A model generated the notes under the pieces. It was not told the origin of the DNA, searched no databases, and worked only from the letters and a program-made list of their open reading frames with translations. DNA of 64,000 nt, taken from positions 11,160,001-11,224,000 of the forward strand of contig CM022665.1 of the NCBI GenBank assembly GCA_012295275.1, written 5' to 3'. The stretch comes from Chrysomallon squamiferum (taxonomy: Eukaryota; Animalia; Mollusca). Positions 26,001 to 32,000 of the stretch are shown piece by piece. The translations under genes and the position numbers were made by a program. Position 1 is the stretch's first letter. Every line of letters begins with the position of its first letter.

Positions 26001-29000
26001 TCCTAATGAAAAAATTAAATTAAATTATTGCACAGTAAACTGTATTCTTATGATGGCACACAGTTAATATCATTTATGCAGGTTTGAGCAATTCTTATTA
26101 CTGCCATTGTATACAGATGTCCTGAGCATCTGATGTTTTTTACATCTGCAAGGGGTCCTGAAACAATGTATCTATGGATAATACAGGTCAACTGAATTAA
26201 TACACAAATGTAAAAAAAAAGAAAAAAATTATAAAAGGGCTTTTATAAAGTATCACTTTAATATTTTTTCACTAACTGAATATGAAATAAACAAACTAAC
26301 AACAACAACAACAACATAATCTATTGGGCTTACATCATCTTTTCTGTGATCAACAAGTAGTAAATTACAACAGTTTCTCTTTTATATTAGCAATATAATA
26401 TTCACAGGACCATTATTTTCCTTTGAATACCAAATATCAAAACATCTGTTGTTTATCTTGTAAAATAAATTATGGCTTTTGTAATACAGAAATATGTGTC
26501 TGGAATAAATTTTAGGGTAAATATGAAATGAATAACCACATGTCTAAATGTTAGTTGGTAAATTTAAACCTTAGAAGGATAACGTAATTATTTTAAACAA
26601 TTACAAAATACACACATACACACATACATACATACATATATACACACAGACACACAAAAACACACACACACACACACAGCATGGCACTGTTGATCCTCAA
26701 TTCCATGGCCTAAGTCTGGGAAATTGCGAATGTAAACTGTAACCTAAAATTTACTGAAACATTACATTTTAGTACACATAACAGCTATAAAATAAATAAT
26801 ATAATAATGTAACAACAACATAGACATAAAAACAAAATAAACAAATGTCACACAGTATCTATAATGAAAAATGTATAGTAGAAATATGTACACTAGGATA
26901 GTTATGAGTGCAATTGTAAAAGTTACTGTTATCTTGATGGAAAGTGGGTTGAGAGATGGTTGCCATGATCATATATTTGGGATTCAGAGTAACTTAACAA
27001 TGGGAAATGGTGGGAAATTTAAACTTTGTGATTTTTCCAGATTTCAACTGGATTTCCTGAGATCTGGAAAATCGAGGGTCATGTGTATATATATATATAT
27101 ATATATATATAGAGAGAGAGAGAGAGAGAGAGAGAGAGAGAGAGAGAGAGAGAGAGAGAGAGAGAGAGAGAGAGAGAGAGAGAGAGAGAGAGAGAGAGAG
27201 AGAGAGAGAGAGAGAGAGACACACACACACACACACACACACACACACACACATACAGATACACACACTTTAAATAAATATAAGAATGTAATATTATGCA
27301 GAATACATATACAGAGAAACAGCATACACAGCACAAAAATACACACAATATGAAAGCAGTTAATTGTTAAAATCTGTGAAGATCTTTAGAACAATTCAAA
27401 AAGATGTTTTATGATATACAAACAATTATTTTTTCTTATTCATAAATACATTTTAGATATTTCAAATAATCAGTAATAACAGTAACAATATTACTATTAA
27501 AACAAACAGACTGACAGCATAATGCTGAAACTTGCATTTTGGATGGAACAAATGAAACTACAGACTGAACCAAACGGAACTGCATCTGTATTTGTATTAG
27601 GCAAACTGCTCAGCATAACAATTCTGCTGCTGTATTCTATTTTTATCTGTAGCCTAGTTTGCCAAACCTCTGTTGAGTATAATATAGAATTGACTTTAAT
27701 TAATGTTTTTTAATGTCAAACAGGAAAATTAAATGTTAATGATTAGTTCTTAATGTGTCAAATAACAGCAGTAAAATGAAAACAAATGCTAAAATATATT
27801 TACATTAATAATAAATTTTAATTATAGAGAAAGTTTACTAAAATATTCATATGATGGAAAGCATTATTTTGCTACTAGGAACCAAATAGCCTATAAATGG
27901 AAAGAGAAGATTTCTCAAGATTGGAGGTCCGATGCCATTGGGTTCTTATACCCGATACCTTGAGTATGAAACTTCTGATTCTATAGAATAGTCTTCCAAT
28001 GGCGCCTTTGACTTCCATTTTTGTTTTGAATATTAAAAAAAAAAAAAAAAATATGAAATTGATATCTCAAGTTTTCTTCTTATTATTTTTTGACACCTGT
28101 TTATCTAGTATAAAGATGGTATATTAAAATTCAGCAGTGTTACTGTATTTATGTATCTTTACTGTTACTGTTACTGTTAATGATATTGTTATTAATATTA
28201 TTATTATTATTATTATTATTATTGTTATTATCATCATTCAAATATTAATAAAACTTTAGTTTCAAAAGCAGTTTAAATTTAAATACTCTGTGTAAAACAT
28301 AAATAACTTACACTAAGAAGGAATTATCTTGGAAACAGAATGCCAGTTAATGTAAAGGATACCAAAATTCTATGATTCTATGGCAATTCTTTTTTTTTTC
28401 TTAGTTTTTGACTGATATGTGAATCTTTATCATAATTCTGTTAATTTTTTCTTCTGACATCTAATAAATATATAAGACATGCGAAAAGTAAACTGTGTAC
28501 TTGTTCTAATATTGGTAATATTAATACATGCAATAATTTTGTTGTCTAACATATTCAAACTTAACAGTACCTATCGATTTGCCAGATTATTTTCATAAGC
28601 AACACTGCTTTGTAAACAAAATTTAAAAATATATTATTTCATTTAATACTTTATGTATTACAAGACTCCATCTGACATGATGAAATGATGTTACTTGTTA
28701 ACATGAAATAATCAATAATAACCAACCTGGCTAGGCTCACAGCATGTAAGACTTAAAGCAAGACCCAGTCTGTACAAATTATTTACATATACTCATAGAT
28801 AAAAATTATTATTATTATTATTATTATTATTATTTTTTTTTTTTAAATGATGTTTCTGTCAGTTTATCAATAACTGCATTATGCTTTTTACATATATCTA
28901 CTAATACAATGCATAAAACTTTTTAAAAGACAATTTGGACGAATGAATACTGAAACTTTCCAAATTTGTACAAATATTTAACTTTAAATATATTTCAGTG

Positions 29001-32000
29001 TTTAAAACATCTCCATTTTGAGATAAGACCAAATAAATATTTCTCAATATATGTAGTGACATATTAAAGATGCAAATAATTATATGTATCAGTTAAGAAA
29101 AAAATAATTTCTAAACAATAAATAATTTATTATTTGAAATTTTCTCATTTGATATTCATGTATGTGTAACCATTCCAAGGTTATTGCAAAGCATATTACT
29201 ATATAAATGAGCTGTAATGCAGTTACTATTGGAGGTCCGAAGCCATTGGGGTTAAGTACCCGATACGTTATGAAAAAATCCCGAATCAATAGACTAGGCT
29301 CTCAATGGTGTTGATTGACTTCCTTCTTGCTACTTTTTTTGTTTATACAAAAAGCATATTTTTTAAATTTATACATTTTTGGTTTTGGTTTTACTAACAA
29401 TTTTAGTATGAATTAAAGCTACATTTTAATTGCTTTTTAAAAAAATGTATTTCAACTTTGATTTGAACAGCCAACAAACATATCTCTTTAAAGGGTGAAA
29501 TTAGAAATAAAACCCACCCTCATTTTACAGGCACCAATGACTGTATTATAAAAAACAAATTTAACACCTGTAAAACTAAAATAATAAAAAAAAATCAGTA
29601 TTTATTGTACATTTACGTATGATGGGTTTTGTGACTACATTCTGTTGATGGATGTTTAGCAAATAACTCAGGCTCAAAAGTGTACATTTATTGTTTTAAC
29701 TGATGAATATAGCAAACCAGATTATGAGTGAATGCAGCATTTATATAACAGATGACACTGTAACCACGTCATTAGTTAATTATATATTATTTCTTCATAG
29801 TATGCAGTAATATATATTTTATTATTATGAAAAGTATAAATCTTTTGAAAAGCAACTTTATGATAACCATACAGCCGGAAAATCATTATGTTGTTTTACT
29901 TGTATGTCAGCAACAGTTGTGATGAAACTTGAAAGTGTATTAATTTGAACAGAAAATTACCACTTTGATTCCTGATTTACACTCACATAAGCGTGCACAT
30001 GCACAGTTATATGAAGCATTTCATTAAAATAATATATATATATATATATTTATATATGTGTGTATGTATGTATGTATATGTAAATTACTTATAACAATAA
30101 TAATAATAATTCAAACAAAAATTGTCAGTAGTAGATTATAATTCTTATGATAATGTAATAACACTTGTGTTCACTGACTTTTTTTTAAATTTATACATAC
30201 ATACATATATATACAAACCAGTGGACAAAAGTGTTATTACATCATCAGAAGAATTATAATCTACTACTGACAATTTTTGTTTCAAATATAATAATAATTT
30301 ATTTATTTATTATATTTTTAAAACAGACGGTTTGAAAATTATTGATAAAAGGAAACGATATCAACATAATCAGTTTAATCAGCTTTAGTGGAAAATTTGA
30401 ATCTCAGAAGTATTAACAAAATCAATAAATATCATTAACAAAATTATAAAAAAAAAAAAAAATTTCAACAGACAAAGGATTGTGGAAAAGCATCATAGGC
30501 CAGGTGGGTGATACAATTGCTAAGCAAAGTAAACTACTACTACTAGCAAAAAAAAAAAAAAAAAAAAAAAAAAGTAAAAAATAAATAAATAAATAAAATA
30601 CAAAATATGAAATGAAATATAAAATATGAAAAAAAAACCCCACATAAATAAATAAATAAATAAAAATAAATAATTAATTGAAAAAAATTAATTAATTATC
30701 AGTATAAAAATCATGAAAAAGAGAAGAAAAGGAATAGTCAGGTATTGAAGCTGAAATAACTTCCTTAAGGACACAGATGCATTAACTTTAAATTAAAAAA
30801 AAAACAGTCATTTTAAAAAATTAAAAAATTTAAAGCTTACTGTTATCATTATTAAAACAAGGTGGTGAAGTTGTTGTGGAGAATACTATTTCGAAGAAAA
30901 TACAACAAATAAACAAACTGATCAATAATTTAAACACAAAAAAAAAAAAAAAATAAAAAAACCTGGAAAAGTAAGATCCACAGATATAAAACTGAACAAC
31001 TAATAAAACCATTTTGTCTACCACAGAAAGGTTATTTAAGTGAACTAAATGAAATGACTTATAAGAATACAAGAGAAACAAAGTAACAACATTAGGTGAA
31101 CTAAAAACTATGAAAATGAAGTCAGGACAAACTGTATTATATTTTACAGATCAGTCTATAATTAATAACAAAACCAGTTAATTAAATGCTAATACTCATT
31201 CAACAGATGTTATTGAAAACAGATTTTTGAAAATCAGCTACAGAAGGGCATTTTGAAGTTAGTTTCATTATGCATGCTACATTACACTTTATACAATGCT
31301 TAGATTTCCTTTGTATGTAATAAAGCTTGTACCAACACATGAAGATTAAGCATAACTAATAATTTTATGGAGATATTTAACAATAATTGACCAAAAAAAA
31401 AAAAAAATTTAAATAGAAGATGATCAATTTGTCTTAATGAATAATATATATAATTCAAGGGGTTAGAATCAGAAGGTCTTAAGTGCACACACACACTCAA
31501 GACCTTCTGTCTCCTTGATATATAGTCATATTTGTGTATTATAAAATCTAATTACGATGCCAATAATTCATGTCTTAATTAAGCCTTTGCTTTTGTATCA
31601 TTGGCAAGATCTTATTAAACTTTAACTTTTGACAGATGACATATATACTATAATTTATAATATTGCCTTTTAATCAACAATTATTTCAGCATTATACACT
31701 ATAATGTTATAAAAGATAGGTTAATTTTTAAGCATCTGCTTGGGCTTGTTTTATTGTTAATTTTATCATTAACAAAGGTTCATGCTAAAAATATAAAACC
31801 ATCATACAGAAGTATATAATAAGCAATTATTATTATTATTTTGTTAGCACACATATTTCATGGTTAGTATTTTTATTTAATCTCAACAAATACAAAGTAT
31901 TTTAAAATCGTACCTGCTGTTATGTTTTGTAAAATTCACAGCTTCTGCAATGCTTTGTTGTATATCAAGAGGAAGAAGTTTAATATCTCCCAAAACACGA

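Follow-up and report, generated by a model that had tools for sequence, protein, structure and literature searches.

We analysed a 64-kilobase (kb) window of the Chrysomallon squamiferum genome (GenBank GCA_012295275.1, contig CM022665.1, positions 11,160,001 to 11,224,000) and give all positions below relative to this window. It contained a pair of short paralogous units that resembled Y RNA genes and lay antisense within an intron of a cis-prenyltransferase gene. It was likely that both units were independent RNA polymerase III (Pol III) Y RNA genes, with predicted RNAs of about 100 and 110 nucleotides (nt) that would bind the Ro60 protein via a bulged terminal helix. An initial annotation, made from the sequence alone, had described two paralogous units of about 100 nt separated by 1308 base pairs (bp), and both were found where it had placed them. 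The units and the gene that houses them were as follows.

27923..28016, + strand: Y RNA-like unit 1 (copy 1), 94 nt; 7-bp helix, bulged C8, 2 bp, 3-nt bulge, 10-bp upper stem and 52-nt loop; RF00019 score 33.4 bits, expectation value (E) 5e-4.
29231..29323, + strand: Y RNA-like unit 2 (copy 2), 93 nt; lower stem as in copy 1, 4-nt bulge and 9-bp upper stem; RF00019 score 18.5 bits, E 3.8.
22964..33750, - strand: DHDDS-like cis-prenyltransferase gene; seven coding exons with an open frame of 343 amino acids; PF01255.
25957..31913, - strand: intron 3 of the DHDDS-like gene, housing both units antisense; AG/GT borders, spliced frame open.

The sequence GGAGGTCCGA was present exactly twice in the window. 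A pattern composed of a TATA box, GGTCCGA, TGR and TTGACY returned only these two loci and was matched in none of 100 shuffles. A third copy was not found in the 64 kb by an unfiltered search using a model built from both units.

The two units could form closely similar stems. In copy 1, the terminal helix would extend from G1-C94 to C7-G88 and be followed by the bulged C8, the pairs G9-U87 and A10-U86, a CCU bulge, and an upper stem in which all 10 of 10 positions paired. Copy 2 had the same lower stem, a 4-nt bulge adjoining an A-G mismatch, and 9 of 10 upper-stem pairs. The published Ro60 site consists of a seven-pair helix, a bulged C and a 3-nt bulge (PMC4726728, in excerpt). This anatomy, with a 7-bp terminal helix, a single bulged C and a 3-nt bulge opposite, was exact in copy 1. 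The initial annotation had reported a terminal helix with a bulged C, a 3'-side bulge and an upper stem of about 9 bp, and all of these were recovered, the upper stems having 9-10 pairs. With an upper stem, a variable loop and 94 and 93 nt plus a tail, both units fell within the published total length of about 83-112 nt (in part from an excerpt of PMC11825425). The stems alone gave folding z-scores of -3.18 (copy 1) and -2.98 (copy 2); the value for copy 2 with its trailer included was -1.84.

Divergence between the copies was concentrated outside the stems. Namely, they differed in 4 of 38 paired columns and in 23 of 57 unpaired ones (Fisher p 0.002, with the structure drawn from copy 1). Among the stem differences, three were C/U changes opposite G that kept the pair, and the fourth broke it, in agreement with the earlier description of stem differences as mostly exchanges of G-C for G-U pairs beside a more variable loop.

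Each unit was also framed by putative transcription signals, and several further elements were present in the flanks.

27892..27897, + strand: TATA box of copy 1, at -31.
29200..29207, + strand: TATA box of copy 2, at -31.
28018..28022, + strand: T5 run, predicted Pol III terminator of copy 1, one base past the unit end.
29334..29340, + strand: T7 run, predicted Pol III terminator of copy 2, past a 10-nt trailer.
27843..27850, + strand: 8-nt upstream match on the copy 1 side (-80), in register with copy 2.
29152..29159, + strand: 8-nt upstream match on the copy 2 side (-79), in register with copy 1.
28035..28074, + strand: A17 run, then a repeat (28061-28074) matching at 12 of 14 positions the 14 nt that precede copy 1 (27909-27922); chance about 1.3% at random window positions.

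The sequence TATA(T/A)A began at -31 in both copies, and such boxes occurred at 0.5% of window positions. Both copies were followed by a predicted oligo-T terminator, T5 in one case and T7 in the other, so that the TATA box near -30 and the downstream T-run previously attributed to each unit were confirmed. The published length of Y RNA oligo-T terminators is 4-6 nt (excerpt of PMC4030889). The flanks had been described as dissimilar, and they were indeed largely unlike, but they shared the one 8-nt match at -80/-79. This match was weak, with a chance of about 2% against random intron pairs, and a proximal promoter element at this place was only hinted at by the sequence. The window contained no U6 or tRNA gene for promoter comparison.

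The repeat flanking copy 1 was possibly a worn target-site duplication, or else a chance match. This bears on an alternative that we regard as unlikely, in which a single active Y RNA gene would be accompanied by its retrocopy or by a duplicate in decay. In favour of this, the A17 run and the 12/14 repeat of the 5' flank lie behind copy 1. Copy 2 scores lower with Rfam, has lost one pair, has a bulge of 4 nt, and its terminator is displaced. In addition, pseudogenes of Y RNAs abound in the human genome (PMC11825425, in excerpt). However, both copies had the TATA box at exactly -31 together with the 8-mer shared in register at -80, sequences that would not accompany a retrocopy. Moreover, the A-run was separated from the terminator by 12 nt and from the repeat by 9 nt, the window contained 14 runs of A15 or longer, and the stems were spared by divergence. 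Retrocopy origin of copy 1 was the main structural rival, yet this was the better-formed copy and its TATA box was in register. Most likely, the pair arose when a stretch of DNA with a unit and its promoter was duplicated locally.

Among the Rfam families, Y_RNA (RF00019) matched both units over the whole model with the scores listed above, and its consensus showed resemblance to the unit sequence. The comparison with Rfam that the initial annotation had proposed thus linked both units to Y RNAs, although neither reached the family cut-off. Copy 1 was also weakly matched by the nematode stem-bulge RNA (sbRNA) family RF01656 (20.5 bits, cut-off 38). No Rfam family reached its cut-off anywhere in the window, and therefore routine annotation would miss both units.

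Similar loci were found in metagenome sequences, where a pattern scan gave 51 loci, 45 of them distinct. At least 9 of 10 upper-stem pairs were formed in 4 of the 45, and three of these had a T4 run as well; neither upper-stem pairing nor the T4 run was part of the search pattern. In the controls, swapped halves reached 9 pairs in 9 of 1722 cases, and T4 was present in 2 of the 42 other matches. A close homolog, the metagenome locus L022, scored 33.5 bits with RF00019 and had the same frame of TATA box and T-run as the snail units. Relative to them, it carried double-sided stem changes (A-U for G-C at 12-81 and C-G for G-U at 20-73) and one A-C mismatch in the lower stem. In the alignment of the three sequences, 96.5% of 57 cells paired, compared with 30-60% in slid controls. 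L022 was located in sense orientation in an intron of a sacsin-like gene, indicating that the host gene was not conserved. Of two protein searches for that host gene, one gave unnamed or coral sacsin-like matches (46 of 54 candidates) and the other gave none.

A 10-nt segment of the loop was identical in both snail copies (27949-27958 and 29257-29266) amid otherwise diverged loop sequence, and it was partly kept in L022. It was possible that this segment represented a protein-binding site.

Another metagenome locus, L033 (1232-1316, + strand), had a TATA box, a 5-pair terminal helix, a distinct 9-pair upper stem and T4. Its score was 25.5 bits with the sbRNA family RF01656 and 24.3 with Y_RNA. 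Since L033 and L022 shared a contig-name prefix and an 8-nt motif 33-35 nt above the TATA box, they may represent two Y RNA types of one animal. A third candidate was a single G+C-rich sequence found in three metagenome records (L005, L037 and L041). In L037 the unit (about 3990-4100, - strand) had a TATA box, an upper stem paired at 10 of 10 positions, a 3-nt bulge and T4, and its contig was microsatellite-rich, gene-poor and eukaryotic-looking; this sequence was a candidate Y RNA of a eukaryote. In the locus L040, 9 of 10 upper positions paired but a T-run was missing, and we set it aside as a likely chance match. The viral collection gave one match, which lacked the stems; a looser pattern gave 43 matches there, none with at least 9 upper pairs, and a strict pattern gave none. 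The pattern had no matches in prokaryote genomes, and a later search of them returned seven, the best with 12.6 bits on our own model compared with 95-110 for the seeds. Since nothing comparable was present in these two collections, a bacterial or viral origin was not supported.

Our data argued against the units being copies of a short mobile element, such as a short interspersed nuclear element (SINE) or a miniature inverted-repeat transposable element (MITE), or a Y RNA-like hairpin that arose by chance, a reading that we consider very improbable. It is true that the ends of each unit are complementary and that the copies were counted within 64 kb. However, the unfiltered model search found only two copies there, and the pairing of the ends uses G-U pairs and bulges, which would suit an RNA rather than DNA inverted repeats. 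Moreover, each unit was surrounded by a strand-specific TATA box and T-run, and a homolog with the same frame was found in the contig of another gene (L022).

The assignment of the host gene was based on its seven-exon open frame and on PF01255, which was matched in order by all five of the exons scanned. Intron 3 lay between cis-prenyltransferase exons, and the earlier placement of the units, antisense within an intron of this gene, was borne out. We take the gene to be DHDDS-like, its Pfam family being PF01255. The distance to either splice site of intron 3 exceeded 1.9 kb for both units, and their placement in this intron was likely incidental. The units lie on the opposite strand in an intron, and the minus strand of copy 1 folds as well (z-score -2.55), as might be expected if they were antisense regulators of the DHDDS precursor messenger RNA (pre-mRNA) or structures within it. 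Such a role nevertheless appeared highly improbable given the distance from the splice sites, the minus strand of copy 2, which folded no better than shuffles (z-score 0.26), and the sense orientation of the homolog L022 in an unrelated gene.

The window also contained a TMEM161 gene (16938-18443, + strand) with a single uninterrupted open frame of 501 codons. The protein was 86% identical to that of Gigantopelta aegis and grouped with it at 100/100 support in a tree of 21 proteins. Judged from this sequence, the host is a gastropod near the peltospirid vent snails.

The presence of the partner protein was assessed in related animals. Three models annotated as Ro60/TROVE2 were listed on different contigs of G. 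aegis (rows 6280, 7858 and 11626; PMC7895826, supplement 6), and one of them was present in a differential-expression table too. These models may be paralogs, fragments or assembly duplicates. A mussel transcript was also annotated as Ro60, in one table row (PMC6215123). The Ro60 ortholog that the initial annotation had called for was represented by these annotated models in the nearest named relative. The Ro60 term was absent from four supplement files of PMC11871041. A TROVE match was not found in the three virus records searched, and a phage TROVE protein had no counterpart among solved structures.

The sequencing data over the stretch comprised contigs from three RNA runs of one study and from one run of unrecorded kind, likely DNA. 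There were five RNA contigs with a depth of 2-3.8; four overlapped a unit, and the fifth covered plain intron. Under uniform placing, the chance of four in five overlapping was 0.03, but the units had a G+C content of 45% compared with 23% in plain intron. One RNA contig ended at 29339, within the T7 run; contigs cannot show transcript ends. As the RNA contigs would fit pre-mRNA or carried-over DNA equally, we did not count them as evidence. The four runs showed five differences and three small gaps, none within either unit.

Thus, the Y RNA reading was based on the Rfam matches, the Ro60-site anatomy, the divergence that spared the stems, the independent homolog, the gastropod host and the Ro60 annotations of G. 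aegis. In each of these tests, the result supported the interpretation put forward in the initial annotation, and the units may be functional. Several observations weighed against it. Both units scored below the RF00019 cut-off of 38 bits, copy 2 at an E of 3.8. The minimum-energy fold of copy 2 preferred another register, in which C8 was paired and not bulged. A weak direct repeat and A17 flanked copy 1. Covariation across the three sequences was suggestive only and not significant, since 104 of 500 shuffles reached its score, with a structure drawn from copy 1. A discrete transcript was not seen, all four RNA contigs that overlapped a unit extending beyond a predicted end. Finally, the evidence for Ro60 came from annotation tables of G. 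aegis and a mussel.

By analogy with vertebrate and nematode systems (excerpts of PMC4726728 and PMC4030889), Pol III would start at G1 from the upstream promoter and stop in the T-run. La would then bind the oligo-U tail, and Ro60 would bind the 7-bp helix with the bulged C. The variable loop could offer sites for further proteins, and the resulting particle might act in the quality control of structured RNAs and in stress responses.

In several respects, the snail units were similar to the vertebrate Y1, Y3, Y4 and Y5 RNAs (RF00019, with Ro60/TROVE2 and La). They had a length of about 100 nt, the GGUCCGA/UUGAC core, the bulged C with a bulge opposite, an upper stem, a variable loop, a putative upstream promoter of their own, an oligo-T stop and a clustered arrangement of genes. 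In contrast to vertebrate Y RNAs, their upper stem had UUG-CAA rather than GUG-CAC, the loop motif UUAUC was missing, the terminal helix was one pair shorter than the Rfam consensus, the scores were below the Rfam cut-off, and the units were intronic and antisense. By description, they resembled CeY of Caenorhabditis elegans and BfY of amphioxus, which are likewise from invertebrates and do not have the upper-stem motif of vertebrates. CeY is a ligand of the Ro60 ortholog and fails to support replication (PMC4726728, in excerpt). Unlike CeY, from which it is reportedly missing (PMC4450293, in excerpt), the snail units kept a UG-CA core. They shared with nematode sbRNAs (RF01656), which form a multigene Pol III family, the bulged C of the lower stem and an upper stem of nine pairs that includes UG-CA (excerpt of PMC4450293). 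They differed from sbRNAs in the lack of A/GUG-CAC/U and UUA(U/C)C and in an RF01656 score of 20.5 against the cut-off of 38. In Ro60 immunoprecipitates, sbRNAs were not found (PMC4726728, in excerpt).

These comparisons bear on a possible role in replication initiation through the upper stem, as in nematode sbRNAs or vertebrate Y RNAs, with or without Ro60. The units have the central UG-CA core (U17-A76 and G18-C75) and an upper stem of 9-10 bp, both sbRNA features (excerpt of PMC4450293), and weak RF01656 matches were obtained for copy 1 and L033. On the other hand, the upper-stem motif A/GUG-CAC/U was absent, with UUG-CAA in its place in both copies and in L022, and UUA(U/C)C was absent from the loops of both copies. 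Y RNAs of C. elegans and amphioxus that lack the motif were inactive in a replication assay (PMC4726728, in excerpt). Since the vertebrate GUG-CAC and nematode UUAUC motifs were absent, a role as a Ro60 partner was more likely than one in replication, which we consider doubtful even though the UG-CA core was kept. Because the Ro60 site and this core were kept and GUG-CAC was not, the snail RNAs would provide a natural test in a cell-free replication assay.

In reviews of 2015 and 2025 (PMC4726728 and PMC11825425, in excerpt), the groups named as having Y RNAs are vertebrates, nematodes, Anopheles, Bombyx, amphioxus and bacteria, and molluscs are not among them. Homology searches reported no Y RNA in schistosomes (excerpt of PMC2770079) or in a tunicate, where sensitivity was blamed (excerpt of PMC5006418). 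It has been proposed in a review that organisms with Ro60 also have Y RNAs (PMC4030889, in excerpt). None of four non-coding RNA terms was present in a vent-snail genome paper (PMC7736800). No mollusc Y RNA was found in the literature searched, with Rfam as the sole RNA database covered, and an earlier record is possible. A Y RNA pair in a mollusc is thus an expected yet unrecorded addition to a known class.

We tentatively suggest, as a possibility with less in its favour than the Y RNA reading itself, that the units represent a Y RNA subfamily of lophotrochozoans, of which they would be the first members and which has a UUG-CAA upper stem and is missed by Rfam. In some of these animals, the same promoter element would also precede a second Y RNA of sbRNA-like type (as in L033 next to L022), and several Ro60 paralogs would be present. 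If this were true, the split between Ro60-type and sbRNA-type RNAs, known from nematodes, would date to early bilaterians. The mollusc sequences supply a seed model for the third large bilaterian branch, useful for a lophotrochozoan search. They also make it a testable question whether Y RNA in the ancestral animal served solely as a partner of Ro60 or had a replication-active upper stem too.

The window had several other features. The same DHDDS intron contained an inverted repeat (30081-30314) with 114-nt arms, 80% complementary, and a 6-nt spacer, which looked like a MITE or foldback element. Short open frames at 40756-41489 (+ strand) and 20651-21258 had the look of transposase remnants by eye, with no convincing Pfam match. 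A multi-exon WD40-repeat gene started at about 42000 on the + strand, divergent from DHDDS; it resembles the PHIP/BRWD family. Finally, a tandem repeat with a 190-nt period was located at 37708-38086, its two copies being 77% alike.

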